A stretch of DNA of 64,000 bases from a virus, in the IMG/VR virus record IMGVR_UViG_3300031922_000090, positions 1 through 64,000 of that record, one strand, 5' to 3'. Below are positions 21,897 through 60,968 of this stretch, piece after piece; the first letter of the stretch is position 1, and the number at the start of each line of letters is the position of its first letter. The notes beneath the pieces are model-generated. The model did no database searches, was not told where the DNA came from, and saw only the letters and a list, made by a program, of their open reading frames with translations. The translations under genes and the position numbers were made by a program.

Positions 21897-21904
21897 GTTA
21901 TACG
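21897..21904 (-). promoter_or_regulatory. CGTATAAC motif (candidate -10-only promoter element)
   Basis: The minus strand reads GGCGTATAAC. It overlaps the stop of 21898..22383, 9 nt before ATG 21887. Confidence 0.35.
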
Positions 21905-22383
21905 CCAACTTTACGCTTCGCGGAAGCCCGGCGCGGAGCGTCCGTCGAAGGGGCATACGTCGGCCCGTAGATCAGTTCTCCGGCGTCGGAACCGTGCTTC
22001 CCTTCGCGCACATACTGACGGATTGTCCCATCAACCGAGATAACACCACTATCATGCTGTGCCCCTTTGTTGCGGACGATGCACACGCCACGACGCAAAG
22101 TCATTGCAGCCCGATTCTTCCCGTCATGACGCTCGAAGTCGATCTCCCATCCGTGTTTTTGCGCCCAAGAATAGCTAATGCTGAGCGGGTGGCACGAAAC
22201 GTAATCGAGATGCTCCGGCAGCACGCGCTCCCGGCGTTGCGAGTCCCAGTCCGTCTTCGTCCGCGTCAAAAGTTCGGCAAACACCCTCCCGCGATTCAGC
22301 TTACCCGGACGATGCCCTGTGACGTGAATGTAGGCCAGCGCAGCGTCGAGCATGTTTTCCTGAACGATTGTGAGATGCTTCAT
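21898..22383 (-). CDS. hypothetical protein
   Basis: 161-aa ORF with no recognised motif. Confidence 0.45.
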   Translation of the reverse strand: MKHLTIVQENMLDAALAYIHVTGHRPGKLNRGRVFAELLTRTKTDWDSQRRERVLPEHLDYVSCHPLSISYSWAQKHGWEIDFERHDGKNRAAMTLRRGVCIVRNKGAQHDSGVISVDGTIRQYVREGKHGSDAGELIYGPTYAPSTDAPRRASAKRKVGV

Positions 22384-22386
22384 GAT

Positions 22387-22839
22387 CTAGTACTCCTTAT
22401 CTTTCTGAGGATCAAAGCCCTCGGTTGTGCGCCCGGCAGTGGTGAACTTTCGGGGATTGTCAAGATAGAATTGGGCGCGTTCCAGGATCAACCGGCCCAC
22501 GGGAGACGGTTTCGCCCTTACAGCTTCGTGAAAAATATCACGCGAGGTGAGCACTGCCTGTGCCAGTGCCTGTGATTGCGGGCGTACTGTGAACCGTACC
22601 CGTCGGCCAGCGTACCCTAACCGGGCGGGGCGGGCATCGATTACAGCGGCAATCGGACGGATGCCGGTATCGTTCGCAGCGGCGGCAAGCGCTAAGCGTC
22701 CCTGTTCCGCTAAGGTGTCCCGGAGCCCGGAACCGGATGTGACGAAAACCAGCGTCTTGCGCGGAAGCGCGTGTGCGCCGTTGCTGTACCGGTGCTCTAC
22801 CGTGATCCAAGCCATATACCGATCATTCTTTTTTGTCAT
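22387..22839 (-). CDS. hypothetical protein
   Basis: 150-aa ORF with a tight 3-nt gap to the next gene. Confidence 0.45.
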   Translation of the reverse strand: MTKKNDRYMAWITVEHRYSNGAHALPRKTLVFVTSGSGLRDTLAEQGRLALAAAANDTGIRPIAAVIDARPARLGYAGRRVRFTVRPQSQALAQAVLTSRDIFHEAVRAKPSPVGRLILERAQFYLDNPRKFTTAGRTTEGFDPQKDKEY

Positions 22840-22848
22840 TGCTGCCCC

Positions 22849-23106
22849 CTATGTCCGGCGCAAAAGCGATCTGGAAACCTTCTTCGGCTTCTTCCGCCCG
22901 GCGGCTTTCTCCGCGCGTACCCGCTCAGCTTCCTTCTTCGCTGCGAGGTGAAAGATCGCCTCATAGCTCACATCGTAGCTTTGATGCCGGCCCTTCTCCC
23001 GGATGCGCAGGAAGAAAGATCTGAGTTCGACCATGAGGTTCCGGCCCTGAATTTCGCCGAGCGTCTCCCGGCGTGTTACAGCGTCCACTTTGGCAAGTTT
23101 TGTCAT
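22849..23106 (-). CDS. hypothetical protein (basic, coiled-coil-like)
   Basis: 85-aa ORF with its own consensus promoter at 23128-23156 and a GAGAGG SD. Confidence 0.5.
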   Translation of the reverse strand: MTKLAKVDAVTRRETLGEIQGRNLMVELRSFFLRIREKGRHQSYDVSYEAIFHLAAKKEAERVRAEKAAGRKKPKKVSRSLLRRT

Positions 23107-23127
23107 GACGGCTTACCTCTCAATTAT

Positions 23128-23156
23128 AGGATACAGCTTCCCGAAGAAGTTGTCAA
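23128..23156 (-). promoter_or_regulatory. sigma70-type promoter TTGACA-N17-TATCCT with CTTC..GAAG spacer palindrome
   Basis: The minus strand reads TTGACAACTTCTTCGGGAAGCTGTATCCT with an A/T-rich upstream tract. 21-nt leader to ATG 23106. Confidence 0.6.
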
Positions 23157-23197
23157 CAGTTTTCTCCATGCCCGGTAAAAAATTTTCACGGCTCCGC

Positions 23198-23491
23198 TTA
23201 CACCGGGTACTTGAAGCCCTTCACGGTGGCGCGGCGGTAGATCATCGCTACCCGTTGCCCGCTAATGCCGATGAAACGTCCAATCTCCCGGTACGAAAAC
23301 CCGGCGTGCTTCCACTGGACGATACGCTCGTAGATCGCGTTCCGGTCCCCGTACCGTGCCACGCCATGACAGGCGATGCAACAGAAGACCCGCTCGTTTT
23401 CAGCAATGGTTTTTCGCCGGAACACCCGCTTACAAGCCGGGTTCCCGCAAACATGCGTATCCGGACGATCTTTGACAGAGATACCTGACAT
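23198..23491 (-). CDS. Zn-ribbon plus HTH (sigma region-4/LuxR-like) DNA-binding protein
   Basis: CGNPACKRV...CCIACH cysteine cluster, then FSYREIGRFIGISGQRVAMIYRRA HTH. Confidence 0.5.
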   Translation of the reverse strand: MSGISVKDRPDTHVCGNPACKRVFRRKTIAENERVFCCIACHGVARYGDRNAIYERIVQWKHAGFSYREIGRFIGISGQRVAMIYRRATVKGFKYPV

Positions 23492-23503
23492 TATTTCTCC
23501 TTT

Positions 23504-23884
23504 TTAGACTACAGGGCGCACTTTCTGCGGCTTAGTACGCCAGTCACAGGCGTTGAAGACTTGAAGCCGGTTAATGAGGAAGACAACGATATCTACCTCC
23601 TCCGAAGGCTTCAGGGTAACAACCGAAAGCGACTCCGGAAGGATCTCCAGAAACTTCGCCATTTCTTCGTCATCCTCCGGAAAAAGCTGCACAACGGCGT
23701 AGCCGGGTTCGACTAAACCGCAAAAAATACCCCGCTTACCCCTGTAAGCTTGGGACTCCGGCTCTGTACCGTAGAACGCACTGATTTCGACCACGGTTCC
23801 GGTTTCGATGATGCGCACACCTGGCTCACCGAAAGAACCTTCCGGATCAAAGCGGCGCATGACAGCCAAAATTGGATTAGACAC
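23504..23884 (-). CDS. hypothetical protein
   Basis: Start set at GTG 23884 (AAGGAGG SD 5 nt upstream). The longer ORF to 24034 has no SD. Confidence 0.4.
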   Translation of the reverse strand: MSNPILAVMRRFDPEGSFGEPGVRIIETGTVVEISAFYGTEPESQAYRGKRGIFCGLVEPGYAVVQLFPEDDEEMAKFLEILPESLSVVTLKPSEEVDIVVFLINRLQVFNACDWRTKPQKVRPVV

Positions 23885-24053
23885 TTGAACCTCCTTGAAA
23901 ATTCTGGGAGAGAGCCGACTTACCCTCTCTCCCTCCCGGCCCGCGCCGTAGCTTTCGGATCTATGGCTACTTGCTACGGCTTCACGGACCCGGCTTCGCG
24001 GCTTACCTCCTCCCGCTCCTCCTAGGAGGAGCAAGACGTATCCGCCCGGAACC

Positions 24054-24365
24054 CTAAAGAAATCGAACGTCCTTCAGGGAAATCGAAGTCGCAATCCTGT
24101 TTAACATCGACCACCCGAAATGAATCTCCTTCCCGGCCAGCGGTCCGAATTCGATAGGCTCGCCCTTCGGATCCACGAGAGCAAGTTCACCCTGTGCGAA
24201 CGCGACACCAAGTTTCCGCTTTTGCGTCTTCAGGATGAGAGCCAAAGAGTACCTCTCGGAATGCCCGCGATACTGCGGGTAAGCGCTCATTTGCGCTTCG
24301 GCCCGCGCCCGTAAAGAAGCGAGAAGGTCCGCTTTTTCCATTGCGCTGAAGTTGTGCTTTGTCAT
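24054..24365 (-). CDS. hypothetical protein, predicted leaderless mRNA
   Basis: 103-aa ORF. The ATG lies exactly 6 nt after the -10 of the promoter at 24372-24400. Confidence 0.5.
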   Translation of the reverse strand: MTKHNFSAMEKADLLASLRARAEAQMSAYPQYRGHSERYSLALILKTQKRKLGVAFAQGELALVDPKGEPIEFGPLAGKEIHFGWSMLNRIATSISLKDVRFL

Positions 24366-24371
24366 GACTCC

Positions 24372-24802: not shown

Positions 24803-24820
24803 GTTCCTGTCCTTTCCTGT

Positions 24821-27953: not shown

Positions 27954-27961
27954 GTTATACG
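27954..27961 (-). promoter_or_regulatory. CGTATAAC motif
   Basis: The minus strand reads ATCGTATAACGTAGAAGAG-ATG. Intergenic. Confidence 0.35.
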
Positions 27962-30957: not shown

Positions 30958-30965
30958 GTTATACG
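30958..30965 (-). promoter_or_regulatory. CGTATAAC motif
   Basis: The minus strand reads AGCGTATAACTTATTGTAGGAGAGCT-ATG and overlaps the stop of 30959..31399. Confidence 0.35.
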
Positions 30966-33182: not shown

Positions 33183-33739
33183 GCTGCTACCTCATCGATC
33201 ATCCGGAGAAGCGTTGCATACTTGGCGCGATATTTCTTGATACTCAGGAAAAAATAGTACTTCGTCTTCCACGACTTCAATTCAGAGTGCGCACGCTCCA
33301 GCATGGAGTCGAGGTGCGCGTCGTTATTGATGTCGAACAGGGCAGTCCCGCGCTCGTTCGGATGCTTTGAGTTTGCAATCGGAGTTGTGAAAAACATCGG
33401 AATAGGCGTCCCGACCACCTTCCGGCCAGCGGACGTTACCTCGATGATCCGGCGTTCAAGCCCGGTACGAAGCTGCCCCGCGATGCCCCGGTAATAGCAG
33501 AAAGCGGCTTCCTTTTCACTGGGGAAAAATCGGGAGGAGTAGTACTGCGAACGATTATTGACGATTTCTTCGGCGATGATATCGGTCGTCAGATTCTCGT
33601 TCTCAAAATCACCAAACCCGTGCTTTTGGGCAATCCGGGCAAGGTCTTCCGCGATGTGCGGCGCGTCAACGTTGCTGAAATGGTAACCGGGACGCGCGAC
33701 AATCTCGACTTCGTGTTTGATCTTCGGCTTTGCAGGCAT
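33179..33739 (-). CDS. hypothetical protein
   Basis: Start at MPAKPKIK (ATG 33739, AGGAGA SD, CGTATAAC 15 nt upstream). 186 aa. Confidence 0.45.
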   Translation of the reverse strand: MPAKPKIKHEVEIVARPGYHFSNVDAPHIAEDLARIAQKHGFGDFENENLTTDIIAEEIVNNRSQYYSSRFFPSEKEAAFCYYRGIAGQLRTGLERRIIEVTSAGRKVVGTPIPMFFTTPIANSKHPNERGTALFDINNDAHLDSMLERAHSELKSWKTKYYFFLSIKKYRAKYATLLRMIDEVAA

Positions 33740-33754: not shown

Positions 33755-33762
33755 GTTATACG
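33755..33762 (-). promoter_or_regulatory. CGTATAAC motif
   Basis: The minus strand reads GTCGTATAACGAAGTAGGAGATACG-ATG. Intergenic, preceded by an 8-bp-stem hairpin GGAGCGGG...CCCGCTCC. Confidence 0.35.
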
Positions 33763-34412: not shown

Positions 34413-34516
34413 AAATCTACCTTTCTTGGGAATACTGCGGGAGCCCGGAGGCTCCCGCCATTGCGTTGATTTGCTGTGCAAAGCGACGCGGGGCGAAGCA
34501 TTACACTAACACCACC

Positions 34517-34545
34517 AGCATAGCTCATCTGGAGGAGGAAGTCAA
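34517..34545 (-). promoter_or_regulatory. cassette promoter P1 (TTGACT-N17-TATGCT), drives the leader and CDS 33807..34412
   Basis: The minus strand reads TTGACTTCCTCCTCCAGATGAGCTATGCT. The ~100-nt leader contains hairpin GCGGGAGCC-TCCG-GGCTCCCGC (34437-34458) with no U tract. Confidence 0.55.
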
Positions 34546-34548
34546 CAG

Positions 34549-34583
34549 AAAAAAATGATGCCGGAATCCCGAAGGATTCCGGC
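34549..34583 (-). terminator. intrinsic terminator T1
   Basis: GCCGGAATCC-TTCG-GGATTCCGGC 10-bp stem, then ATCATTTTTTT. Confidence 0.8.
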
Positions 34584-34640
34584 CATTGATTTACTTTACT
34601 CCACAAAGCAATACAGCGCGATACGAGGCATAATCTCAAC
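34549..34640 (-). ncRNA. predicted small RNA 3 (~92 nt), promoter P2 to terminator T1
   Basis: Approximate transcript GGUGGUGUUGAGAUUAUGCCUCGUAUCGCGCUGUAUUGCUUUGUGGAGUAAAGUAAAUCAAUG plus hairpin and U7. Only an 11-codon ATG ORF. Ends are inferred, not measured. Confidence 0.45.
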
Positions 34641-34646
34641 ACCACC

Positions 34647-34675
34647 AGCATAGCTCATCTGGAGGAGGAAGTCAA
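34647..34675 (-). promoter_or_regulatory. cassette promoter P2 (TTGACT-N17-TATGCT)
   Basis: Identical to P1 and lies within the 85-nt repeat. Confidence 0.55.
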
Positions 34676-34678
34676 CAG

Positions 34679-34713
34679 AAAAAAATGATGCCGGAATCCC
34701 GAAGGATTCCGGC
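34679..34713 (-). terminator. intrinsic terminator T2
   Basis: Identical hairpin and U7 tract to T1. Confidence 0.8.
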
Positions 34714-34775
34714 CATTGATTTGAGATGCTGTGCTTCACATTACTACGCCGCACACCACTTTGTCCAACACCAAC
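34679..34775 (-). ncRNA. predicted small RNA 2 (~97 nt), promoter P3 to terminator T2
   Basis: Approximate transcript GAAGAUGUUGGUGUUGGACAAAGUGGUGUGCGGCGUAGUAAUGUGAAGCACAGCAUCUCAAAUCAAUG plus hairpin and U7. The 5' AGAUGUUG can pair with CAGCAUCU. Only a 13-codon ORF. Confidence 0.45.
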
Positions 34776-34781
34776 ATCTTC

Positions 34782-34810
34782 AGCATACCTCATCTGGAAG
34801 AGGAAGTCAA
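34782..34810 (-). promoter_or_regulatory. cassette promoter P3 (TTGACT-N17-TATGCT)
   Basis: The minus strand reads TTGACTTCCTCTTCCAGATGAGGTATGCT. Confidence 0.55.
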
Positions 34811-34813
34811 CAG

Positions 34814-34847
34814 AAAAAATGATGCCGGAGCCCCAGGTGACTCCGGC
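34814..34847 (-). terminator. intrinsic terminator T3
   Basis: GCCGGAGTCACC-TGGGGCTCCGGC hairpin (GCCGGAG/CTCCGGC arms), then ATCATTTTTT. Confidence 0.7.
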
Positions 34848-34914
34848 TATCAGATTACTTTAATGCGCCAAATAGGGAGGCAGGTTACCCTACTGTACGT
34901 GACGGCGCATTAAC
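34814..34914 (-). ncRNA. predicted small RNA 1 (~100 nt), promoter P4 to terminator T3
   Basis: Approximate transcript GAAGGUGUUAAUGCGCCGUCACGUACAGUAGGGUAACCUGCCUCCCUAUUUGGCGCAUUAAAGUAAUCUGAUA plus hairpin and U6. Perfect 10-bp internal stem UUAAUGCGCC/GGCGCAUUAA. Confidence 0.45.
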
Positions 34915-34957: not shown

Positions 34958-35974
34958 TCAGGAAGAACTCGGAGCCAACGCTTCTTCAAGATCCGCGTAC
35001 CGCGAAAAATGCTCCAGACGTTTGAGTGCAATGGCAACGTAGCCCGGCTCCCGCTCGATGCCCGTAACCCGCTCCCACCCGGCAAACCGCGCTCCGATCA
35101 TCTCGGAGCCACTCCCGGCGAACGGCACCAGCAGGCGTCCACCCGTGGGAGGCAGGATCAACTTTGCGAGGTACTGGGTCAGATAAAGCGGCTTCACAGT
35201 CGGATGGTCGTTATACTCACAGCGGTCCTTTCGAGCTTTCCCACAGTAGAAAAATCTGGAAGAACCCGGAGCTTGAGCCTCCAGCATCTCAACCGGCTCG
35301 CCAGCTTCGAACAGGACGTTAACGGGATAGCGCCCTTCGGTAATCCGCGTACCGTCAATGTTCAAGCCACCCGTCCCGTACTGAACAACGTTATCGCACA
35401 CCGGGCCGGTTACAGGTTTCCGCGCGAGAATGATCGGCTCCCATCCCGGCCTCAGAGTCGTGTTGTAGCCGTCCCACAGCGCAGCCTCGGGAGATCCCGG
35501 CAACGTCTTCAGGCGGTTACTTCCAGAAAAATCACCCTCGTAGCCGATGGAGTTGTGATCGTGCGCGGCATAATTCCGCTCCCGAGGTTCGGCTCCGGGC
35601 GGACAATACTGTGCCCCGGTCTCCCGGACGATACCTTTCTTCCGGTCGATGAGCTTACCGAGATCCTGTCCCTTCGGAAAACCATTTCCGTACAGCCACA
35701 TCAGGCAGTCAACAATCTCAAACCCTCCGGCTTCAATCGCCACGGCTAGATGATGGAAGGTCCGCGTGCCCCCGAACGCCAGCAACGGCGCTCCCGGCTT
35801 CAAGACCCGGCAAACCTCGGCCCAAACAACGGCGGACGGAACCCCATGGTCCCATTCCCGCCCGAGAAATTTCAGCCCGTAGGGCGGATCCGTAAGCACG
35901 GCGTGGTACTGTTCCGGCTTCTTCCGCTTGAGAACAGCAAGCACGTCGCCGGTCTCAAGTAAAATCCCCGCCAT
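34958..35974 (-). CDS. DNA N4/N6 methyltransferase (ParB-less, beta-class order)
   Basis: VLTDPPYGL catalytic motif near the N-terminus and LLVPFAGSGSEMIGA SAM-binding motif near the C-terminus. 338 aa. Confidence 0.85.
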   Translation of the reverse strand: MAGILLETGDVLAVLKRKKPEQYHAVLTDPPYGLKFLGREWDHGVPSAVVWAEVCRVLKPGAPLLAFGGTRTFHHLAVAIEAGGFEIVDCLMWLYGNGFPKGQDLGKLIDRKKGIVRETGAQYCPPGAEPRERNYAAHDHNSIGYEGDFSGSNRLKTLPGSPEAALWDGYNTTLRPGWEPIILARKPVTGPVCDNVVQYGTGGLNIDGTRITEGRYPVNVLFEAGEPVEMLEAQAPGSSRFFYCGKARKDRCEYNDHPTVKPLYLTQYLAKLILPPTGGRLLVPFAGSGSEMIGARFAGWERVTGIEREPGYVAIALKRLEHFSRYADLEEALAPSSS

Positions 35975-38100: not shown

Positions 38101-38108
38101 GTTATACG
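38101..38108 (-). promoter_or_regulatory. CGTATAAC motif
   Basis: The minus strand reads GTCGTATAACGTAGTTTAAGG... and overlaps the stop of 38102..38947. Confidence 0.35.
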
Positions 38109-38947
38109 ACGACCTTCTCCGCAGAGACGGCTTCGGCCTCAACCGTGATCGTTTCCCCAGTTTTTTCTTCCGGAGCTGCTGGAGCGGGTAACTGTCCCAC
38201 GGCCTGCAAGATCGCCAAGATTGCGCCCGCTTCCTCCGGCGATTGAGGAATAATCTCATCCTTGCGGTCGGCCTGCTCGACCACGCCCCCGACGAGAATC
38301 TGCTGTTTAGCGCCCCAACGATGCGGGAAGCGGCGTTCAAGCAGCGAGAAAAGATTGCCCCCATGGCGCGCTCCGAGCTTGATCAAACTGACATCGGCGA
38401 TTTCAGACTGCGCTTCAGCGATATCCAGCGCTCTTATGAACTTTGCAAACTGCGAATTACCGTCCTCAATTTCCTCCACACCACGGTCGCGCCATGCCCG
38501 GTATTGCGATGCCGTGATGCCAATTGCCCGGCAGGCGATCTCCGCATGGAGCCCCGCACCCACCCACCGGGTAGCAAGCCGAATCATCTCGTCCGTCGGC
38601 CCTTCCTTAAACAGGAATGAAGTAGGAAGGCCGGAGAGCGAAACCGGCTTAGGTAGATCTTCCTTATAGAGATTTTTAAGCTGGCGGCGCATCTGCAAAT
38701 ATGCGCCGTTCACCAAACCCTTTCTCCCGTTCGGCTTCCCGTTTGGCGTAGTTCCGGAAGAGGAGGATTTACGAAAAGCGGAGAAGTCCGGCGCTGCTTT
38801 TTTAGCCTTCGGAACCTTACTACTGGGTCCGGCTCCACCCCCGGACGCGGCCTTCCGGGTGGATTTTGATCTTGGTCCGGCTTTAGCAGCGCTTTTATTT
38901 TTAGAATTACCCGGCCTCCCCGGCTTCTTAATTGGCTTTTTACCCAT
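38102..38947 (-). CDS. Lys-rich N-terminus plus HTH protein, terminase-small-subunit-like (tentative)
   Basis: IACRAIGITASQYRAWRDRGVEE...FAKFIRALDIAEAQSEIADVSLIKLGA...LLERRFPHRWG resembles HTH-type TerS proteins. By eye only. It is far from TerL. Confidence 0.3.
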   Translation of the reverse strand: MGKKPIKKPGRPGNSKNKSAAKAGPRSKSTRKAASGGGAGPSSKVPKAKKAAPDFSAFRKSSSSGTTPNGKPNGRKGLVNGAYLQMRRQLKNLYKEDLPKPVSLSGLPTSFLFKEGPTDEMIRLATRWVGAGLHAEIACRAIGITASQYRAWRDRGVEEIEDGNSQFAKFIRALDIAEAQSEIADVSLIKLGARHGGNLFSLLERRFPHRWGAKQQILVGGVVEQADRKDEIIPQSPEEAGAILAILQAVGQLPAPAAPEEKTGETITVEAEAVSAEKVVV

Positions 38948-39284: not shown

Positions 39285-39371
39285 AGTTCCTCTTCATGAA
39301 CGCTCGAAGGATTCGTAGAGAACTTCCCCCCCCCCCCGGCCATCCTTCGGCCCCACTTCCAGAATTAAACT

Positions 39372-39931: not shown

Positions 39932-40115
39932 GCTTTTCCTCCTGATCAGGTTCTACGATTTCAAACTCCCGTCCGGCGTCCATCCCGGCGAAAATTCCTG
40001 GAACCTCCTCAAACGGCACAATCGGAAAACCAATGGAGCGGGAGAGACTCGCTGCCGAAAAACTCCGGTACAGCGTCAAAATGGGGAGCGTATCCTCCTC
40101 TTCCGGCTCATACAC
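39921..40115 (-). CDS. hypothetical acidic protein (GTG start, uncertain)
   Basis: 64-aa ORF with no clear SD. Confidence 0.3.
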   Translation of the reverse strand: MYEPEEEDTLPILTLYRSFSAASLSRSIGFPIVPFEEVPGIFAGMDAGREFEIVEPDQEEKLEG

Positions 40116-44861: not shown

Positions 44862-45245
44862 CTAGTAAATTGCGGAGCAACTTCTCCGCACAGTCCGAAC
44901 CTGATGGGCAACAGAGCCACGGAGATGCTTCTCTCCGGCAATCTGAGCCCGGACAGCCTCATCTGTCCATAGCTGGCGTTCGATGCCGTTACGGTACAAA
45001 TTCCGGCCCTTGCGCCGCGTCTCCACCCCGGCAACGAGCGGTTGCACCCCACTGGACTCAACCACGCGAAACGTAAAAGTATGCTGTTGCTTACCTGCTC
45101 CGTAGCTCTCCCGGAGAATTTCGGCAACGATAGTCCGGTTACCGGCATACTTCGGTGAACGGAAGGATCCGGAAAAAACCGCTTCCGTAAAGCGCACGAC
45201 GTCGCCTCTAACCACATCGCCAGTTGCGTCTGTCCACTCAATCAT
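44862..45245 (-). CDS. hypothetical protein
   Basis: 127-aa ORF with a GGAGG SD, preceded by a long G/C-rich imperfect hairpin. Confidence 0.45.
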   Translation of the reverse strand: MIEWTDATGDVVRGDVVRFTEAVFSGSFRSPKYAGNRTIVAEILRESYGAGKQQHTFTFRVVESSGVQPLVAGVETRRKGRNLYRNGIERQLWTDEAVRAQIAGEKHLRGSVAHQVRTVRRSCSAIY

Positions 45246-45332
45246 AATGCCTCCAAATTGACGGAGGAAGGGGGAAACCCTCCCCCTCCTTCAGATCGCG
45301 GTCACCCGCGTAAGAACAGTCTCCCTACGTCC

Positions 45333-45340
45333 GTTATACG
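45333..45340 (-). promoter_or_regulatory. CGTATAAC motif
   Basis: The minus strand reads TTCGTATAACGGACGTAGGGAG, in the 250-nt low-coding gap 45246-45498. Confidence 0.3.
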
Positions 45341-45892: not shown

Positions 45893-46222
45893 TCAGTCCC
45901 AGTAACGCCCACCGAATATAGCCGGTTTAACACCAGCGGAGCGGTCGAGGTACTCCCGGCGATAACTGGGACATCCCGGAATAAAGATACCCTCATAATG
46001 CGGTAGGGTAAAAAGCCCAAGCAGCTTCCCTAGGGCTACCCGCTCGTCAACATTCATCCTGTGAGTAGCGTTCCGGGCGGTAATCTTGATCCACCCATAA
46101 GCAGTACCCCGCCCTCCAGTAACGGACCAACGGATGCCGATGCCCTGCTCGGCGGAACGCCGCTTGAGATTGTCGTGAATCGTCTGAATCACGGCATTAC
46201 GGTCATAAATTGGGTCACTCAT
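45893..46222 (-). CDS. hypothetical protein, predicted leaderless mRNA
   Basis: 109-aa ORF. The ATG lies 6 nt after the -10 of promoter 46229-46257. Confidence 0.5.
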   Translation of the reverse strand: MSDPIYDRNAVIQTIHDNLKRRSAEQGIGIRWSVTGGRGTAYGWIKITARNATHRMNVDERVALGKLLGLFTLPHYEGIFIPGCPSYRREYLDRSAGVKPAIFGGRYWD

Positions 46223-49029: not shown

Positions 49030-49087
49030 TAGTACTTTAGTACTAAAAAGAGCTCGATCTGAAAAAAAAAAGGGGGGGGGGCACCCT

Positions 49088-49877: not shown

Positions 49878-50320
49878 ATCTTATTCCTCTTGATAATAGT
49901 ATTGTCCCACCCGTACACAGCATACGGAGCGGAAGAACCTTCCAAACGTGATACAAGATCCTCAATTTGTCCAATCCTGGAACGGGTTGTGAAGATGTGG
50001 AATTCTTCCCCGATATCACAGAGAGCGGCGTGACGGGTCAAATATAAAAGTTCATACTCCGGTCGTGGAACCCGGTCTGAAAAACGGAATAGAACCTCGG
50101 CCACCCCAAAGCCAAGTTCAACAGCAACAGCCTTAATCAGTCTTCCAAAACCCCGATCACAACCTTGAGTTATGATATACGCTTCCGGATTTTTAAAACG
50201 AACATCGTCGAGAATTGTCTTCAAAAAAGCATGATCTTCAGGACTACCCTCCTGATCTCCATAACCCTTAGCGTCATTCCACCCGCGATGTCGCGCTCCG
50301 GCGATAACTACCCGTTTCAT
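49874..50320 (-). CDS. hypothetical protein (possible SLOG/DUF2493-like fold)
   Basis: RVVIAGARH...IITQGCDRGFGRLIKAVAVELG pattern. By eye only. Confidence 0.35.
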   Translation of the reverse strand: MKRVVIAGARHRGWNDAKGYGDQEGSPEDHAFLKTILDDVRFKNPEAYIITQGCDRGFGRLIKAVAVELGFGVAEVLFRFSDRVPRPEYELLYLTRHAALCDIGEEFHIFTTRSRIGQIEDLVSRLEGSSAPYAVYGWDNTIIKRNKI

Positions 50321-53127
50321 ACCCTCTGAAGCACCTCGCTAATTTTGTTTTTCTTCCGGATAACCAATTGCGCAACATCGGACAATTCCGAAAGAATAAC
50401 GGGATTATGAGTAGTCAGAAAGATCGATTGATAACGCTCCGCCAATTCGCGCATCCCGGCGGCAAATTGCCGCGCGTTACGCTCATCAAGACCTTCCCCC
50501 GGCTCATCCGCGATAAGGAGATTGCACGGCGCAAGAACATCACGAAGGACAAAGGAGACGATCAAGGACGCAAGACGGGTCTCCCCGTTCGATTGATCGT
50601 CGAGAGATTCCCCGCCGTTTTCGTTGGTAACCTTGATATCGATATCTTCGCCCGACATCACAAACTGGACACCGATTTCACCCTCGGTAAATAGCTGTGA
50701 ATAGTATGCGGCACTCCGGTTGAGGCGCGGATAGAGCCGTGCTGAAATATATGCGGGAATCCCGTCTTTCGCAAATGCCTTACCAGCAAACGAAAGAAAG
50801 CTGCTCTCAGCGTCAAGAGCGGTAAGACTGCCCGTATACTTCCGGATTTTATCATCCGCCTCCAAAAGAGCCTTCTGGTAATGAATGACACCCCTGTCCT
50901 CATCCGAACGGAGAGCTTCCAGTGCGGCCCGCGCCCTCTTCAGATCCCGGCCAGCGCTCTCATAGGCCGCTTCGGCCCTCTGGTGTGCCTTGCTGGCGTT
51001 AGCAAACTCAGACTCAAGCGGAGATAGGGTACTAGCCTCGAAAGCGCTGTGAGCCTTACGAGCAGCCTCAGCGGCAGCCTGCGCTTTCCCCGTTTCCTCA
51101 ATCAATTCTCGCGCGTGACGCTTAAATTTTGATGCGTCAATCTGCTGTTCGCACGTTGGACAGATACCTTTTTCATGAAGATCTGTAATTCGCGCGAGTT
51201 CTTTGGCCTTAAGAGCTACGGCAGTTCTCAAACCAGATAACGTCTCGCGTAGTTCTTCCGATTCCTTCCGGACGAGAGCCAGCTTCTTCTGGAGATTAGC
51301 TACTACGGTAGCTGTACGTTTTACTTCAGTCTCGGCATTGGTAACCTGTGTCCGGATATCCGTAATCCGCTTTTCCGCCTCAGCAACATCGGTCTTTACT
51401 TTAGCCCTCAAAGTTCCCAGAAATTCCCGGTACTGCATTGCGGATGCCTCAGCCACTGATAACAGTGCGCCAACTTCCCGGCGCTCCGTCTCCAGCTTCT
51501 TCGCCTCAACCTTGATCGCCTCAAGAGCTTTCTGGTAACGTTCAAGATTCAGAAATTGCGCGAAGATCGCCTTACGGTCGGCGTCGGTTCCTGTCAGCAT
51601 CCGGTTCAAGTCCCGTTGATCGATATACAGCGCGTTTGTGACGGTCTCAAAAGTCAGCCCGGTTAGAATCTCGATGTTCCGTTGAATCTCCCGGTCTCCC
51701 ATGCCAGAAGAAATGTCCCGATCATCAAGGAACAACGACGTCGTCTTCGGTTGCCGCGAACGAAGGATACACAGCTTCCGCCCATCCGGAAGCCGGAGCG
51801 TCGCCCGGATAAACGATTTCGCTGAAGACGAAATCCCGCAACGCTTCAAACGGTCGGCAGCCTGCCCCTTGAGCGTTTTCCCAAACAGCGCGACCAAAAG
51901 AGCTTGAAGATAACTCGTCTTCCCACTCCCGTTTGAACGGCCCTCCCAGTCATCATTGCGTCCGGAGATAAGCCGAAGCCCTTTTGGATTTTCGTAATCG
52001 ATAGAGAGCCGTTCGAAACTCAGGATATTTTCGGCCTCCAACGACACAATCTCAACACCGTCAATCGAACGCGAAACATTGGAAACCTGTGCAAGTTGAT
52101 ATGTCAGATAGGCGCACAACTTATCCTGTTGACCGCTCAAAGATTCCGGCACAGATGAAGTAATCCAGTCACTAATGATTTCACCATCTGAAGCATTCTT
52201 CCGGATCTTCAGTCCTACTGTTTCTGCCTCGGCAACCTCGGGTACAACAAAAATTCGCGCACCTGGATACGCTGCCTCCGCTTTCGCTTTGGCGGCAACA
52301 AGAACAGCAGGCACGTTCTGATCATCTTTTTCCACCGGAACCTTGAGTCGAACCGAGGCTCCCGCCCAAGTCTTAGGCGGGGTGAAATCTTTCATTCCCG
52401 GATCATACATTCCCGGAATCCGGGAAGCGATCTTCCGGATCTTCCCCGTACCGGCGTCAAAAATTAGAAAACCCTTCGCCTCGTTTGCCTCCCCCCAGTC
52501 GGTCGCAAAAGGGGAACCGATATACCACACGCCCGGTTTAATCTCCTGCTGACGGTGAAAGTGCCCACCGAAGACAGCACTATAAGCTTCGGGACTAAGA
52601 GCGTTGAGCGGAAGCGCGTCGTCGCCCTGATAGGATCTTCCGGCATTGATCTTCGCGCCGTGAATCCCGGCATGAAAAACCAAAATCGTATTTTTATGTT
52701 TCCGTACCCGCGCGGCAAGGTCAGCAGCGGCTTCCTGGAGCTTTCCGGCGTCGCGCATAAAAGGCAGGAAAGCGATAGACACCGTTTCTCCGGCCTTAAC
52801 GATACAGGGTTCGGTAAAACACTGAACACCCGCTCCATGCAACACCGGAAAGAAATTATCGGCACCCTCCGACGTTGCGAGCATGTCGTGATTCCCGAGA
52901 TTTGCAAGCAGGTTAATCTTCCGGAGAGAACATGCACTAGCAAAATCAATAAGACGGTTCAGCACACGCCCATCAATAGGGTTGAGATTATGCTTGATAT
53001 CGCCCCCATGGACTATATAGCTAATACCCTCTTTTCCGGCAATCTCCAGCAAGTGAGCAATTGTCGCATCAACTTTTTGAAGATTTGAGAAAGTGGCCTG
53101 CCAGTCTGAGGTAAAAAGAATTTTCAT
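50317..53127 (-). CDS. fused SbcD/Mre11-like nuclease and SbcC/Rad50-like ATPase (single 936-aa polypeptide)
   Basis: N-terminus: phosphoesterase motifs TSDW, GGDIKH, LGNHDM, VFHAGIHG, GGHFHRQ. C-terminus: Walker A GRSNGSGKTS, coiled coil with CPTC zinc hook, signature SNGETRLAS, Walker B LLIADEPGEGLD, H-loop LTTHN. Confidence 0.8.
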   Translation of the reverse strand: MKILFTSDWQATFSNLQKVDATIAHLLEIAGKEGISYIVHGGDIKHNLNPIDGRVLNRLIDFASACSLRKINLLANLGNHDMLATSEGADNFFPVLHGAGVQCFTEPCIVKAGETVSIAFLPFMRDAGKLQEAAADLAARVRKHKNTILVFHAGIHGAKINAGRSYQGDDALPLNALSPEAYSAVFGGHFHRQQEIKPGVWYIGSPFATDWGEANEAKGFLIFDAGTGKIRKIASRIPGMYDPGMKDFTPPKTWAGASVRLKVPVEKDDQNVPAVLVAAKAKAEAAYPGARIFVVPEVAEAETVGLKIRKNASDGEIISDWITSSVPESLSGQQDKLCAYLTYQLAQVSNVSRSIDGVEIVSLEAENILSFERLSIDYENPKGLRLISGRNDDWEGRSNGSGKTSYLQALLVALFGKTLKGQAADRLKRCGISSSAKSFIRATLRLPDGRKLCILRSRQPKTTSLFLDDRDISSGMGDREIQRNIEILTGLTFETVTNALYIDQRDLNRMLTGTDADRKAIFAQFLNLERYQKALEAIKVEAKKLETERREVGALLSVAEASAMQYREFLGTLRAKVKTDVAEAEKRITDIRTQVTNAETEVKRTATVVANLQKKLALVRKESEELRETLSGLRTAVALKAKELARITDLHEKGICPTCEQQIDASKFKRHARELIEETGKAQAAAEAARKAHSAFEASTLSPLESEFANASKAHQRAEAAYESAGRDLKRARAALEALRSDEDRGVIHYQKALLEADDKIRKYTGSLTALDAESSFLSFAGKAFAKDGIPAYISARLYPRLNRSAAYYSQLFTEGEIGVQFVMSGEDIDIKVTNENGGESLDDQSNGETRLASLIVSFVLRDVLAPCNLLIADEPGEGLDERNARQFAAGMRELAERYQSIFLTTHNPVILSELSDVAQLVIRKKNKISEVLQRV

Positions 53128-53172: not shown

Positions 53173-53180
53173 GTTATACG
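53173..53180 (-). promoter_or_regulatory. CGTATAAC motif
   Basis: The minus strand reads GTCGTATAACTTCATTG. It overlaps the clamp-loader stop, 45 nt upstream of ATG 53127 (GGGAGA SD in the leader). Confidence 0.35.
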
Positions 53181-54161: not shown

Positions 54162-54434
54162 TTAAAATCCTTTCAAAAGATTTGTTGCCACCGACGTCAC
54201 ACGCCCGAGAAACATTCGCGCCTCCGCTTTAGCATCATCGAGTTTTCGTCCCGAAAATTGCTCAAAGTATTCCTGAATCTTCGCCTCGGCGATAGCTTCG
54301 GTTACTTTGTTGTCTGCGCGCTGCGCGAGAAGGAAAAATACAAAACCCTTCGGGGGCAAATCATATTCGGTTTGCAGGGAAGCCGCATTCTCCGGAGCTT
54401 GAACAGATAGTGTATCAACACGTTTTTTAGGCAT
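54162..54434 (-). CDS. hypothetical protein
   Basis: 90-aa ORF with a GGAGGA SD. GGTATAATAT element upstream. Confidence 0.45.
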   Translation of the reverse strand: MPKKRVDTLSVQAPENAASLQTEYDLPPKGFVFFLLAQRADNKVTEAIAEAKIQEYFEQFSGRKLDDAKAEARMFLGRVTSVATNLLKGF

Positions 54435-57193: not shown

Positions 57194-57201
57194 GTTATAC
57201 G
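57194..57201 (-). promoter_or_regulatory. CGTATAAC motif
   Basis: The minus strand reads TAGGCGTATAAC-CTAGGT-ATG. Intergenic after polA. Confidence 0.4.
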
Positions 57202-57202: not shown

Positions 57203-59896
57203 CTAAACGAAAAATTCCTTTGCCATCTTCGCATCTGTAGCAGCATTCGCTGTAAGCCACCCGGCAAGAAATTCCTCCCGACTTCCCCCAAAGTAATCCT
57301 CCAGAACCCCATACCGGAAGCCAGCGGAACCCTCCGAAACCAGCGGCACCCGGAGGTTCAGATCGAAAACACGCCGGGTATAATCGACGACACCCCCCTC
57401 AAGTAGCGTCTTCGCCTGAACGTAGGCTTCCGGAAGATCCCGGAATTTTACCCGAAAGACGAGAGCGTCGTGTACTTCCATTATCGGAGTTGAGAGTAAA
57501 GGAAATAGGGAAGGAGTCTCATCAAGAATTGCCATTGAACAGAGAAGCAACGTATGGGCTGCCCCCTGAATTGGAGAGTTGATAGCCTGATTCAACGGAT
57601 TAGTTGTGCGGTCTTCATCATAATCGTTACCAATCCGACGCCGAAAACCAAAGATCGTATCAACATACCCATCCCGCTCGGCCTTCGCCCGCATTCGATC
57701 AATGTATGACGCTACGCCCCGGTATCTTGCAAAATAGTCCCTATGAAAACGGGCAGCCTGTTCTTCCGTTGCCTTTATACCCTTGGCTTTAAGGTAATAA
57801 TACAGACCTTTCTCCGAGAGACCGTAGATTAAGCCGAAGTGACAGTTCTTGATAAACGTCCGTGTATCTTTGTCTTTCTTGATGAACTCGAATGACCACG
57901 CCGGGTTAATAGCGTTTCCGACTGCGCAGTGAATATCCAAGCCCGCGTTGAATTGCTCAATCAAAAGAGGATCACCGGAGCATTCCGCCAGCATTCTAAT
58001 CTCGATCTGACTATAATCGAAGGCCAAGAAGAGATCGATTGCAAGAATATCTTCCGGTAATTCCTGCCCGGCTTCCCAAAACAGCACCTCGCACCATTTC
58101 GCATCGGAAACCAAAAGATTCTTCAGGAATGGGGAACCATGGAGATTCTGCATATTAACCACACCGTGTATCCCATCCCTTGTACCACCCGAGCGAAGAC
58201 GGCCCGTAACAGCACCCGTCAAATACCATTTCGTTCTCAGTTCCCCGGAATGCATCCCGGCACTTTCCCGATAACCCCTGAGATAGGTTGAATCCATCTT
58301 TGAGAATTTCCGGTAGTCCAGAACATACTGGGGAAAAGGATGCCCGGTCGCCTGCGCAATAATCGAAAGGGTGCTTTCTTTCGTACTTCGCGGGCTTTCC
58401 TCATTTGCAAACTCACTTGAAACCTCGGGAAGAGTAGGGAGCTTTAATTTATCGTACATTGCCCATGCAATCTCAGTGGGCGCGTTCGGGTTGAGATCAG
58501 GTTTCCCGGCCAGTTGCCGGATCTTGGACGCTAACTCGCTAATCTTATGCGGTATAATCCGTTCCGCCTCCGCTTGATGCTCCATATCCAAAGTAGGCCC
58601 GCGTCTCTCCATCTGAAACAACGTTCGCCCGGCTCCGATATAGACGCGCACCAACGGCGCGGATACCTCATCCCTGTTGTCAACTTCAATCCTTTTAGTC
58701 AGTGCAGCATCGGCTCCGTTATATTTAATAAGCGTCGGCAGTGGGCAGGCAGCGAGCCCCTCCGCGCGTGAATAGAATCCCTGAACAATTTGTTTGTACC
58801 CCGCGTAATGCGGATAGTGAAGCGTCGCTATTGTATCCAGACTATGACTCCGGATGAACGTGTTGGCTAAATAATGCGCGTAAGTTGTGTCGAATGTATA
58901 TCCCCTAACTTGAACTCCCAGAGCTTCCTGAAGATGGATTGTGTCGTAAGACCCGTAGTGAAAAATCTTCTCAATTGTCTCGTCTTCAAGAATTTGTTTA
59001 AGAAGTCTCCGGACCTTGCTTATCTCCTCCTGAGACACCGTATTTTCCGGATGGTCAAGAACGACTACGGCGGCTTCATTCTTTGCCCATGAAAAACCAA
59101 TGACGAGAATCTTAGTCTCCCCATCAATTTTTGCATCCTCAATATCTACAGCTATCCGCTCTCCGGAACTACGCATCTCAGAGATAACCTTCTCAAAAGT
59201 TGCGGCCCGCTTAATTACCCGAATCGGGAGAGCATCTAACCAAGCGTAACGCCCGGAATTTTTAACATGCCATAAAGCAGCCCGAAGACGTTGAGCCCAC
59301 GCTTTATATTTCCGCCCATCTTCACTAAGAGCTTCCACTACTTCCGGAGGATCTAAAACAAAAATCTTAGCGGACAGTTTATCACTCCAGAATATGGGGC
59401 AATCCTTTTTATACTCGCGCCCAAAAAGAGCGGCGGCGGCAACCTGCCCGAAAACAATATGGGTTCCAGCAGCACCCAAATTCAACCTCAGTGCTGTATC
59501 GGTATGTGCCCGGCAGTGCGCTATCTCTTCCTTAGCCGGTTCCCGCTCGATCATATACCCACTGACATCACTTACCGGACGGCAGCGAACTATCGTCTGC
59601 ATATCGAAGTCTTCGCGTGTTAACCCGGCTTGAGACAAATGCCTCCAAAGGAATCTACCCGCACGGCCACTCAAGTACTGCCCCGCTACAATATCTGCCT
59701 TCGTCGGCGAGATACCCCATATCATAGCCGGACGCTTCTTAATCAGATCATGACCGAGAAGCTTACGCCGCTTCTGCAACGGACAACCCTGACACCCATA
59801 ACCAAACTTCCCGAATTTTTTCTTAAGCTGTTTACCCGCTTTGTCGGCCTCCAGCGCACACCCATCACCGATAACCGACAGCCAAAGTTTAGGCAT
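57203..59896 (-). CDS. family A DNA polymerase with N-terminal UDG-family-4-like domain and 3'-5' exonuclease domain
   Basis: N-terminus CQGCPL...GISPTKADIVAGQYLSGRAGRFLW...VRCRP. Exo I IAVDIEDAK. Pol motif A DYSQIEIRMLA, motif B RTFIKNCHFGLIYG, motif C MEVHDALVF. Start at ATG 59896 (ATGA overlap). Confidence 0.9.
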   Translation of the reverse strand: MPKLWLSVIGDGCALEADKAGKQLKKKFGKFGYGCQGCPLQKRRKLLGHDLIKKRPAMIWGISPTKADIVAGQYLSGRAGRFLWRHLSQAGLTREDFDMQTIVRCRPVSDVSGYMIEREPAKEEIAHCRAHTDTALRLNLGAAGTHIVFGQVAAAALFGREYKKDCPIFWSDKLSAKIFVLDPPEVVEALSEDGRKYKAWAQRLRAALWHVKNSGRYAWLDALPIRVIKRAATFEKVISEMRSSGERIAVDIEDAKIDGETKILVIGFSWAKNEAAVVVLDHPENTVSQEEISKVRRLLKQILEDETIEKIFHYGSYDTIHLQEALGVQVRGYTFDTTYAHYLANTFIRSHSLDTIATLHYPHYAGYKQIVQGFYSRAEGLAACPLPTLIKYNGADAALTKRIEVDNRDEVSAPLVRVYIGAGRTLFQMERRGPTLDMEHQAEAERIIPHKISELASKIRQLAGKPDLNPNAPTEIAWAMYDKLKLPTLPEVSSEFANEESPRSTKESTLSIIAQATGHPFPQYVLDYRKFSKMDSTYLRGYRESAGMHSGELRTKWYLTGAVTGRLRSGGTRDGIHGVVNMQNLHGSPFLKNLLVSDAKWCEVLFWEAGQELPEDILAIDLFLAFDYSQIEIRMLAECSGDPLLIEQFNAGLDIHCAVGNAINPAWSFEFIKKDKDTRTFIKNCHFGLIYGLSEKGLYYYLKAKGIKATEEQAARFHRDYFARYRGVASYIDRMRAKAERDGYVDTIFGFRRRIGNDYDEDRTTNPLNQAINSPIQGAAHTLLLCSMAILDETPSLFPLLSTPIMEVHDALVFRVKFRDLPEAYVQAKTLLEGGVVDYTRRVFDLNLRVPLVSEGSAGFRYGVLEDYFGGSREEFLAGWLTANAATDAKMAKEFFV

Positions 59897-60954
59897 CAGG
59901 CAGACCTCGGAGAAATAAGAATCCGGGTACTCCCATCGGTAAAACGATAAGGCCCTCCCGGCTCCCAAGCGATAGCGATATCCTCTGCTTTCGATTCAGC
60001 CACAAAAGGCCGAATCGAAGGCAACAGAAAACTCTCGGCAAGATCACCTGACAACGGTCGTAAAGCCGGTACTTTCTCGATAAATGTTGCCGAATCGGAA
60101 ACAGAACTCAAGCGGACCACCGTCTCGCCTTTCAGCCCGGTTACGTTAGCAACGGCGATATCAGCCCCAAGCTTCGCCAAACGGTCGATAGCGCCAAGAA
60201 ACTCCTCCCGCGACAGCCTAACCTTAGTCTTCCACTGCTTAGCGGCATCGAACATCGCTGAAAGTTTGGCAAGCGGAAATTTTAGAGCGTCCTCACTGGA
60301 AAGATGCAACAGCCACCCGTTAGCCGAGAGAAAACGAACCCCATAAGCAGAAATGTTAAGACAATCGCCTGCGGACAATAGCGGTACAAACTTTGGCGGT
60401 ATGCCGACATCAGCGTCAAGAGTATCTCCAAAAGAAGCCTGAAAGGCCGAGAGACGATTTGTCGCCATAACTACCTTTCCCGATTTGAAAATGTGGACAA
60501 GAGATAGTCCCGGAATCTCCGCGTCCTCAGTGCAATACTTCGACGCAATACATAAGGCGGAACATAACTCGGAAGAGATAGGAATTTTAACTTCCTGAAG
60601 ATCGGGAGGAAGGGTGCCATAACCAGTCGGCGATATCGCTGGAAACGTAAACTTGGCTTCCCGGCGTCCCCCTTTTATACGCACCTCGGTATCCGTTTTC
60701 AGGATGCGCAACGCTAAATCCCCGAAACCCTTACCGAGAAAGGTACGAAGCGGTTTACGCGCGATAAACGCAGTCCAGACTGTTGAGTCCGTCTCAGCAG
60801 CGATTCTCACCTCCCCTAGAAAATCGCCTGCCAGCGCTAAGGACACCTCACCCCGGCCTGATTTTACCCGGAAAAATTCGGATGAAAGGCTCTTCTTCCC
60901 GATCACATCGAGAAATTCGATACCCGTTAGAAAATCTGCGGCGGCAATGCGCAT
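59896..60954 (-). CDS. sliding clamp (DNA pol III beta-like), predicted leaderless mRNA
   Basis: 352 aa, the right size for a three-domain beta clamp. Located between the sigma/Cys-rich genes and polA, with a clamp loader nearby. The ATG lies 6 nt after CGTATAAC with no SD. Identity by context only. Confidence 0.45.
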   Translation of the reverse strand: MRIAAADFLTGIEFLDVIGKKSLSSEFFRVKSGRGEVSLALAGDFLGEVRIAAETDSTVWTAFIARKPLRTFLGKGFGDLALRILKTDTEVRIKGGRREAKFTFPAISPTGYGTLPPDLQEVKIPISSELCSALCIASKYCTEDAEIPGLSLVHIFKSGKVVMATNRLSAFQASFGDTLDADVGIPPKFVPLLSAGDCLNISAYGVRFLSANGWLLHLSSEDALKFPLAKLSAMFDAAKQWKTKVRLSREEFLGAIDRLAKLGADIAVANVTGLKGETVVRLSSVSDSATFIEKVPALRPLSGDLAESFLLPSIRPFVAESKAEDIAIAWEPGGPYRFTDGSTRILISPRSA

Positions 60955-60960
60955 ACCAAA

Positions 60961-60968
60961 GTTATACG
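60961..60968 (-). promoter_or_regulatory. CGTATAAC motif
   Basis: The minus strand reads GGCGTATAAC-TTTGGT-ATG and overlaps the stop of 60962..61534. Confidence 0.4.

Follow-up and report, generated by a model that had tools for sequence, protein, structure and literature searches.

What is the role of a short DNA word that recurs ahead of genes, always in the direction of their transcription, in the genome of an uncultivated phage? The octamer CGTATAAC raises this question in a 64,000-nucleotide (nt) stretch of an IMG/VR virus record (IMGVR_UViG_3300031922_000090, positions 1 to 64,000; hereafter the window), which is part of a new siphovirus-like phage belonging to a lineage known from metagenomes only. 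A sequence-only reading of the window had proposed a promoter class consisting of a -10 element alone, by analogy with the late promoters of coliphage T4, recognized by a phage-encoded or phage-modified sigma factor, with an RNA-level role as the alternative. Every computational test that we ran agrees with the promoter reading and, although it is unproven, we consider it probable that CGTATAAC is a single-element, -10-type middle/late promoter read by the host core RNA polymerase together with a sigma factor specified by the phage.

A sharply defined octamer at gene junctions

All genes called in the window lie on the minus strand. Exact matches to CGTATAAC number nine on this coding strand (Table 1) and one on the plus strand (312-319), in agreement with the positions listed earlier, and the total of 10 compares with 0.90 +/- 0.99 expected from dinucleotide-preserving shuffles (n = 100), none of which reached 10. 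With up to one mismatch there are 42 matches, the 10 exact ones included, against 30.5 expected; as the one-mismatch variants are thus at background, CGTATAAC is a sharply defined octamer rather than the peak of a fuzzy motif. A k-mer enrichment test, which had been suggested as a check, returns it as the top junction-enriched octamer of the window, with seven of the nine minus-strand copies inside a junction mask that covers 7.8% of the sequence (p = 5e-7); the other two are outside the mask because the provisional gene starts were set too far upstream. All nine copies are at gene junctions on the coding strand, just as had been claimed. Their distances to the next ATG of a real open reading frame (ORF) reproduce the earlier list; for the copy at 21897, an ATG at 5 nt opens an ORF of only 42 amino acids (aa), and it is the ATG at 9 nt that shares the frame of the called gene.

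The TAA of the octamer doubles as the stop codon of a long upstream ORF in five of the nine copies (60961, 53173, 38101, 30958 and 21897), and the remaining four lie in short gaps and furnish no real gene with its stop. GTAG occurs within 25 nt downstream of six of the nine, and of the six coding-strand copies of GTAGG(G)AG, four are found within 25 nt downstream of CGTATAAC. The use of the TAA as a stop and the frequent GTAG(G) that follows, both pointed out in the sequence-only reading, hence stand with these counts, as does the placement of the element in the replication and middle region. The copies range from 60968 to 21897, the last one heading a unit that runs into the terminase gene, and the 20-kilobase (kb) structural module has no exact minus-strand copy. 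The possibility that the copies are parts of a duplicated intergenic segment was rejected because their flanks are mutually unrelated.

The plus-strand copy at 312-319 lies inside a minus-strand gene (101-1150) and is followed by neither a plus-strand ORF nor a pyrimidine-A step; chance would account for it (about 0.45 copies expected on each strand), although it may also be an antisense start. One-mismatch variants near junctions are limited to CGAATAAC at 7815 and CGTAGAAC at 39950. The former (7815-7822, minus strand) is at a junction in the tail module, where its TAA is the stop codon of the gene at 7816-8178 and an AGGAGG-type Shine-Dalgarno (SD) sequence follows; it may be a weak site or a coincidence.

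The element follows gene orientation

A second locus, L016, overlaps with the window for 12.5 kb with 0 mismatches and is hence the same phage; its additional 4.9 kb contribute two exact CGTATAAC copies from outside the window, bringing the correctly oriented copies in this phage to 11. One of them (L016 3013) comes after a GC-rich hairpin and 9 nt before a 180-aa gene, which heads an operon for DnaB, primase, exonuclease and the sigma-like protein. L016 2693-2700, the other copy, reads CGTATAACctcggtATG on the opposite strand and has, 6 nt downstream, the in-frame ATG of an opposite-strand gene, in an arrangement almost the same as those at window positions 60961 (tttggtATG) and 57194 (ctaggtATG). 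The two copies lie 313 nt from each other and point apart across a 316-nt gap, in which a consensus scan found no sigma-70-type promoter for either gene. Hence, CGTATAAC turns with the direction of the gene, no other conserved candidate for a start signal of the two genes is present, and if it were a translational operator, a processing site or a roadblock, a promoter not seen in this gap would still be needed. Chi and nick sites of the T5/tf type are likewise strand-specific and are not confined to gene junctions. A motif of either kind was rejected, as it would not flip strand with an opposite-strand gene or keep to junctions.

Conservation in related phages

Relatives were collected via the DNA polymerase, and the entire family is known from metagenomes only. 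In the closest one, IMGVR_UViG_3300049855_000380 (loci L004, L017 and L027), the polymerase is 59% identical. Its 29.7 kb hold seven exact CGTATAAC copies, each of which is at a junction on the coding strand and extends to CGTATAACTA; the other strand has zero copies. The ATG follows at 5, 7, 10, 22, 6, 5 (or 25) and 5 nt. Three junctions bearing the element are orthologous between the two phages, namely those before the clamp gene (60961; 5814 in L004), after the polymerase gene (57194) and before the DnaB operon (L016 3013), and the remaining copies are lineage-specific, as expected for promoter turnover. The sequence-only reading had named conservation at orthologous junctions as one outcome and a frequency in relatives independent of junctions as the opposite one; with 7/7 copies of the closest relative at junctions and CGTAT(AA) kept in distant relatives, it is the former that was found.

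The junction after the polymerase gene can be followed furthest: L019 has CGTATAAC there, L021 CGTATAAT, L022 CGTATAAA, L024 CGTATAAG, L007 CGTATGGT and the clade of L006, L013 and L014 CGTATyyy (y, pyrimidine), i.e., together with L004, a series of the form CGTATAAn or CGTATnnn. The DNA flanking this junction is not alignable across the relatives with MAFFT, and RNAalifold found no base pair in it. In an unbiased ranking of words from the distant relatives, GCGTAT is the top junction-enriched hexamer and CGTAT the third pentamer, after SD-like words, with counts that are not independent because some of the loci are related to one another. A homolog of the sigma-like protein is encoded in 13/13 relative loci, in the same neighborhood, and each of these loci also has the motif core. 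Three further loci retrieved from IMG/VR with the polymerase query alone (L001-L003) are distant, and each has a single CGTATAAC copy inside a gene, as by chance. A homolog search with a 321-aa protein returned only the query itself, and a scan of metagenome contigs returned nothing.

Architecture of the sites and the predicted position of the start

The architecture was derived from 20 exact sites, i.e., the 11 of this phage, the seven of its closest relative and those of L019 and L022. A logo computed from 13 and then from all 20 displays the eight invariant positions, a weak purine at -2, G or T at -1 and A/T-richness immediately downstream, with the remaining columns from -50 to +20 showing no conservation. 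The earlier statement that a -35 element is lacking was borne out: among the 20 sites no column upstream of -4 exceeds 0.35 bit and no k-mer in the interval -42 to -18 rises above shuffled controls, such that a hidden -35 is rejected by the fixed-column and the k-mer tests alike.

Downstream, the gene start is at least 5 nt from CGTATAAC in 20/20 sites and at 5-7 nt in nine of them, as measured from ORF-checked starts (window, L016 and the closest relative) combined with a list of first ATGs; at L022 4574, an ATG at 4 nt is not the start of the 369-aa ORF, which opens at 18 nt. Bacterial RNA polymerase usually prefers a pyrimidine at -1 and a purine at +1 of the transcript. A pyrimidine-A step that places the A at +6 to +8 from the element is present at 13/20 sites, against a background of 0.24 (binomial p = 1e-4). 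Window genes with a distance of 9 nt or less are in the weakest 3-15% of ATG-start genes for anti-SD pairing, the start after the copy at 27954 showing the weakest pairing measured (97th percentile). At distances of 15-22 nt, the SD sequence begins at or just past +6.

If transcription starts 6-8 nt downstream, as in phage phiEco32, a leaderless mRNA would open directly with an ATG located at 5-7 nt. The start codons 5-9 nt downstream and without an SD sequence accordingly suggest leaderless mRNAs, and about half of the sites would yield mRNAs that are leaderless or nearly so. A more specific version of this idea is possible, if somewhat doubtful: a cassette of stop, promoter and leaderless start, in which divergent small sigmas, composed of region 2 and a C-terminal domain other than sigma region 4, read a single 8-11-bp element whose second role is to end the upstream gene with Val-stop, the spacing being such that the transcript starts with the A of the next ATG. 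Were this the case, messages for the clamp/polymerase unit and further units of the replisome would be leaderless, with the other genes relying on ordinary SD sequences.

A phage-encoded sigma-like protein

The candidate reader of CGTATAAC is a small protein whose gene lies between the exonuclease gene and a 190-aa gene (Table 1). It gives a weak match to the Pfam family Sigma70_r2 (E = 2e-4), and the relation becomes clearer in the orthologs, 12/13 of which match this family with a best E of 6e-9, and in the wider family, with matches in 54 of the 61 members scanned. No region 4 family of Pfam matches any of the 61 members. A profile of six orthologs run against PDB recovers sigma factors only, i.e., FliA, SigH and sigmas of the extracytoplasmic function (ECF) type (E = 1.6e-6), and a profile of the 61 members improves the best E to 1.6e-8. 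An AlphaFold (AF2) model, with a mean pLDDT (the per-residue confidence score) of 79.5, consists of two helical domains, the C-terminal one with four helices, joined by a disordered linker (residues 80-101). The top Foldseek matches in PDB and BFVD are all ECF-type sigmas, with weak E values (0.006-0.02) and low TM-scores, the latter because the relative orientation of the two domains differs. From sequence comparisons, we see the protein as a small distinct family of its own: an exhaustive profile search among 1.84 billion sequences yielded 762 representatives with E up to 0.001, of which 88 reach 1e-10 or better, and most of the matches span the full length.

The 190-aa gene directly downstream keeps this position in most relatives (169-185 aa), and its product has no match in Pfam, PHROGs or PDB; that it is a co-factor of the sigma is a speculative suggestion. 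A phage RNA polymerase was also considered as the reader of the motif and was rejected, there being no candidate among the large proteins or in the gene lists of the relatives.

Host-type promoters and a second noncanonical element

Several intergenic gaps of the minus strand contain host-type sigma-70 promoters of the form TTGACA-N17-TAnnCT, namely those before the genes starting at 46222, 43018, 34793, 34481, 25321, 24365 and 23106. They have a conserved spacer, (ac)TTCCTCCGGAA(g), most come after a hairpin, T-run terminator and A/T tract, and they are probably the early promoters of the phage. None of them overlaps with CGTATAAC. As ordinary host-type promoters are present and none overlaps with it, CGTATAAC is something different, and a second promoter class is to be expected. 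It differs from host sigma-70 promoters in having the hexamer TATAAC and no -35; the T at the last -10 position, absent in TATAAC, is kept by all sigma-70-type promoters of the phage. At 34478-34871 there are three tandem units of about 130 nt, each composed of a terminator hairpin (GCCGGAATCC..GGATTCCGGC with a T-run) and a TTGACT-N17-TATGCT promoter, a repeated terminator-promoter cassette that possibly drives very short transcripts or peptides.

Another word, CCGATAATAT, has exactly three copies, all on the minus strand in gaps of the structural module (8200-8208, 12882-12890 and 13566-13574), preceding a 120-aa gene (8178), the capsid gene (12765) and a 220-aa gene (13547). One copy furnishes a stop codon with its TAA, and two are followed by GTAG. 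The related GGTATAATAT is found in the gap before the gene starting at 54434. We regard CCGATAATAT as a candidate second noncanonical (late) promoter class; it is absent from the 15 loci checked, which cover the replication region for the most part and comprise a few unrelated phages.

A model for transcription and the points against it

Taken together, these features point to a program in which host sigma-70-type early promoters (TTGACA-N17-TAnnCT) would drive the early genes, and the phage sigma would then redirect the polymerase to about 11 CGTATAAC sites at gene ends in the region of replication and nucleotide metabolism, with one site heading the unit that runs into the terminase gene. 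Region 2 of the sigma would read the eight base pairs, optionally preceded by a purine and by K (G/T), with contact to a -35 unneeded. Transcription would start 6-8 nt downstream, usually at an A after a pyrimidine. Where the ATG is 5-9 nt after the motif, the message would be leaderless or nearly so, and elsewhere it would begin just 5' of the SD sequence. The pairing of this sigma with CGTATAAC, the start position, the timing and leaderless translation are the parts of the model that we infer; the analysis directly shows the statistics, orientation and conservation of the motif, its lack of a -35, and that a sigma gene is present and to which family it belongs.

Several observations weigh against this model. 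What ties the sigma to the motif is only their co-occurrence, and CCGATAATAT could be the true target of the sigma, leaving CGTATAAC to another factor. Most promoter classes are less strict than the eight invariant positions in 20 sites seen here. At its C terminus, the sigma has a conserved helical domain; the Foldseek and hidden Markov model alignments to ECF sigmas run into it and place it against region 4, and ECF sigmas normally need a -35. The sigma gene itself belongs to an operon headed by CGTATAAC, and neither the window nor the upstream gap yielded a good sigma-70-type promoter ahead of it; with the gene downstream of CGTATAAC and no such promoter in between, there is a bootstrap problem, and a bootstrap source, e.g., transcription running on from the early helicase unit, must be postulated. 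Four window sites require translation of a leaderless mRNA or one with a 1-3-nt leader. Finally, a strong hairpin intervenes between the copy at 45333 and its gene.

Alternative explanations

One alternative is that CGTATAAC is a promoter with a different reader, such as a host alternative sigma (e.g., of the ECF type), sigma-70 with a phage activator or another phage factor, and that the phage sigma serves CCGATAATAT. The three copies of CCGATAATAT before structural genes, with the GTAG that follows, indicate that a second noncanonical class exists, the location of the sigma gene downstream of CGTATAAC is the source of the bootstrap problem, and CGTATA matches the -10 of a cellular ECF sigma. 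However, TATAAC is without the final T kept by the phage's sigma-70-type promoters, cellular ECF sigmas need the -35 that is missing here, the motif core and the sigma gene are found together in 13/13 relatives, and CGATAATAT is absent from 15 loci checked (mostly replication-region, including a few unrelated phages); we therefore hold another reader to be distinctly unlikely. An RNA-level signal on a polycistronic mRNA, i.e., an endoribonuclease processing site or the operator of a translational repressor in the manner of T4 RegB/RegA, also seems unlikely to us. It would account for a strand-specific motif in the mRNA sense that lies 5-21 nt before the start in 7/9 cases, is often followed by the GGAG-containing GTAGGAG, and can pair with UAUGC at the start codon in 3-4 sites. 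Yet the nine 70-nt contexts fold like their shuffles (z -0.8 to +1.7), the orthologous junction has no consensus structure, there is no Rfam match, and among the roughly 45 window proteins scanned (some small ORFs were left out) no nuclease or RNA-binding protein was identified. An invariant 8-nt single-stranded RNA site would moreover be unusual, the two divergent copies at the 316-nt gap have no other promoter to supply the RNA, and neither the 5-nt lower bound to the ATG nor the pyrimidine-A step at +6 to +8 is predicted. A structured RNA as such was rejected on the folding, consensus and Rfam results; the GCGUAUA-UAUGC pairing, seen in 3-4/9 sites, is not significant.

The distribution of CGTATAAC is equally that of the stoperators of cluster A mycobacteriophages, which are asymmetric sites in short intergenic spaces oriented with transcription (PMC9283540), and a phage protein bound to such a DNA site might block elongating RNA polymerase in one orientation. 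These stoperators (L5/cluster A) are repressor sites of temperate phages, intergenic 13-mers that are also found at promoters. The same scan of about 45 proteins revealed no integrase or repressor, and the phage looks virulent because its gene content amounts to a full replisome plus nucleotide metabolism. The sigma-70-type early promoters have no CGTATAAC, whereas the L5 sites are also operators, the site measures 8-10 bp and not 13, the 20-kb structural module has no copies, and the fixed spacing of 5-7 nt to SD-less starts goes unexplained, making a roadblock of this kind very improbable. Least credible of all is a purely translational signal, i.e., a stop/restart cassette or SD substitute permitting reinitiation after the TAA of the motif, even though the TAA is the upstream stop in 5/9 copies and the SD-less starts lie 5-9 nt away, the usual SD-to-start spacing. 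Against it, 4/9 copies are not the stop of a real gene, the sites at 15-87 nt have an SD of their own or a long leader, the motif by inspection has no useful anti-SD complementarity beyond UAA, and copies occur after hairpins, at operon heads and on the opposite strand, where no upstream ribosome is available to restart.

The sites and their genomic context

Read along the minus strand, the genes begin with those for primase, a 5'-3' exonuclease, the sigma-like protein and the 190-aa protein. These are succeeded by a block for the clamp-like protein, DNA polymerase A, an SSB-like protein, RecA, a clamp-loader-like AAA protein and a fused SbcD/SbcC-like protein. The following 25 kb or so consist mostly of small genes without assignment, among which are genes for a methyltransferase, an exonuclease subunit, dCMP deaminase, a MazG-like protein and a thymidylate-synthase-like protein, and the final block has the large terminase, portal, MuF-like protein, capsid and tape-measure genes. 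Close relatives among GenBank phages are absent by megablast; tblastn with the polymerase reaches only about 25% identity to GenBank phages, and the sigma has no match in them.

Table 1. Minus-strand copies of CGTATAAC in the window, in the order of transcription, and principal genes discussed in the text (distances run from the element to the next ATG of a real ORF)
Feature	Coordinates	Strand	Distance to ATG (nt)	Context
CGTATAAC copy 1	60961..60968	-	6	TAA terminates the 190-aa gene that follows the sigma gene; ATG of 352-aa clamp-like gene without SD; DNA polymerase gene next
CGTATAAC copy 2	57194..57201	-	6	1 nt past the TAG stop of DNA polymerase A; ATG of 171-aa gene without SD; then SSB-like, RecA and clamp-loader genes
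CGTATAAC copy 3	53173..53180	-	45	TAA is the stop of the clamp-loader-like AAA gene; ahead of the fused SbcD/SbcC-like gene (936 aa); GTAGGAG 12 nt downstream
CGTATAAC copy 4	45333..45340	-	87	257-nt non-coding gap; followed by GTAGGGAG, then a strong hairpin
CGTATAAC copy 5	38101..38108	-	21	TAA is the stop of a 281-aa gene; before a 179-aa gene
CGTATAAC copy 6	33755..33762	-	15	Short gap before the ATG at 33739; GTAGGAG from 3 nt downstream
CGTATAAC copy 7	30958..30965	-	16	TAA is the stop of a 146-aa gene; before a 305-aa gene; GTAGGAG begins 5 nt downstream
CGTATAAC copy 8	27954..27961	-	9	Short gap before the ATG of a 112-aa gene; dCMP deaminase gene next
CGTATAAC copy 9	21897..21904	-	9	TAA is the stop of a 161-aa gene; before a 57-aa gene; heads the unit with MazG-like, thymidylate-synthase-like, large terminase and portal genes
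Sigma-like gene	61510..62061	-		183 aa; 175 aa from the database start at 62037
190-aa gene	60962-61534	-		Directly downstream of the sigma gene
DNA polymerase A	57203-59968	-		With N-terminal UDG-superfamily domain
SbcD-like/SbcC-like fusion	50317-53127	-		936 aa; Metallophos and AAA_23
Large terminase	18223-19803			

The hairpin after copy 4 (about 45250-45300, minus strand) has the form GGAAGGAGGGGGA-gggttt-CCCCCTTCCTCC and lies between the motif at 45333 and the gene's ATG at 45245; it may be a stabilizer in the 5' untranslated region or an attenuator. The 281-aa protein encoded at 38102-38947 (minus strand) in the early/middle region, far from the large terminase, matches a PHROG of small terminase subunits (E = 3e-17).

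Across the whole window, the palindrome TCCGGA occurs 108 times (17 expected), CCGGAA 125 times (16 expected) and CCGG 737 times (305 expected), and GGCC is depleted (173, with 305 expected). On the coding strand TCCGGAA is spread across all three codon frames, so codon usage is no explanation, and CCGGAAG recurs upstream of genes in the relatives L006 and L007; the excess of CCGG-type words could be a signature of the host genome or a methylation-related word. A DNA methyltransferase is encoded at 34958-35974. Homopolymers of 12 Gs in an intergenic gap (39326-39337, minus strand) and of 10 Gs (49072-49081, plus strand) could be slippage-prone tracts or an assembly artifact. In the relative L012, a GTP cyclohydrolase I gene beside the clamp gene (7566-8180) hints at 7-deazaguanine DNA modification in part of the family.

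Comparison with known phage and cellular systems

The late promoters of T4, TATAAATA, are nearly invariant 8-bp elements with a -10 only, located inside earlier transcription units and read by gp55. The present sigma is reminiscent of gp55, a phage sigma of similarly small size (about 185 aa) whose relation to other sigmas is confined to region 2. The T4 analogy drawn in the sequence-only reading hence holds for the type of promoter, but the closest analog is furnished by phiEco32 gp36 together with the SigW -10 rather than by gp55. A clamp gene is present here, with no demonstrated link to the element, and a gp33-like co-activator was not identified, although no search was aimed at one. Since CGTATAAC would serve replication genes as well as a unit leading into the packaging genes, the class would be middle plus late and not strictly late as in T4.

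In phiEco32, the middle/late promoters read by gp36 have the single element tAATGTAtA with starts 6-8 bp downstream, and the missing region 4 homology of gp36 is the explanation given for a single-element promoter without a -35 (PMC8948821). Both phages encode a sigma without recognizable region 4, and their elements share the core GTATA. They differ in the motif sequence, and the element described here often holds the upstream stop and abuts an SD-less ATG; its sigma has no detectable similarity to any GenBank phage and forms a small family of its own, and its bearer is an uncultivated siphovirus-like phage with its own replisome, in which the motif is known from sequence alone. On the cellular side, the Bacillus subtilis ECF (group 4) sigma SigW recognizes TGAAAC-N16-CGTATA, with CGTATA as the catalogued -10 (PMC8769915). 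This hexamer equals the first six bases of CGTATAAC, and the best structural matches of the phage sigma are of the ECF type; yet ECF promoters are bipartite with a strict -35 (AAC; of the GGAAC/GAAAC type, 16-17 bp upstream), whereas none is seen here at any spacing. The late promoters read by gp47 of phage 7-11 (GTAAtg-N16-aCTA), which are at conserved genome positions (PMC8948821), involve the same general kind of sigma, but are bipartite in contrast to the single element CGTATAAC.

A full-text search with the octamer gave no phage or promoter study among the best-ranked 10 of 270 matches. What is new is the motif, together with the sigma family and the phage lineage; the strategy is already known from T4 gp55 and phiEco32 gp36, such that current understanding is extended rather than overturned. 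If confirmed, the spacing of CGTATAAC to SD-less starts would be a further instance of replication genes whose leaderless expression is programmed, and a new sigma family with a portable 8-bp promoter would become available for orthogonal expression parts and for the annotation of metagenomic phages. It would also provide a readable transcription program for an uncultivated lineage, leading from host-type early promoters via the phage sigma to the CGTATAAC promoters.

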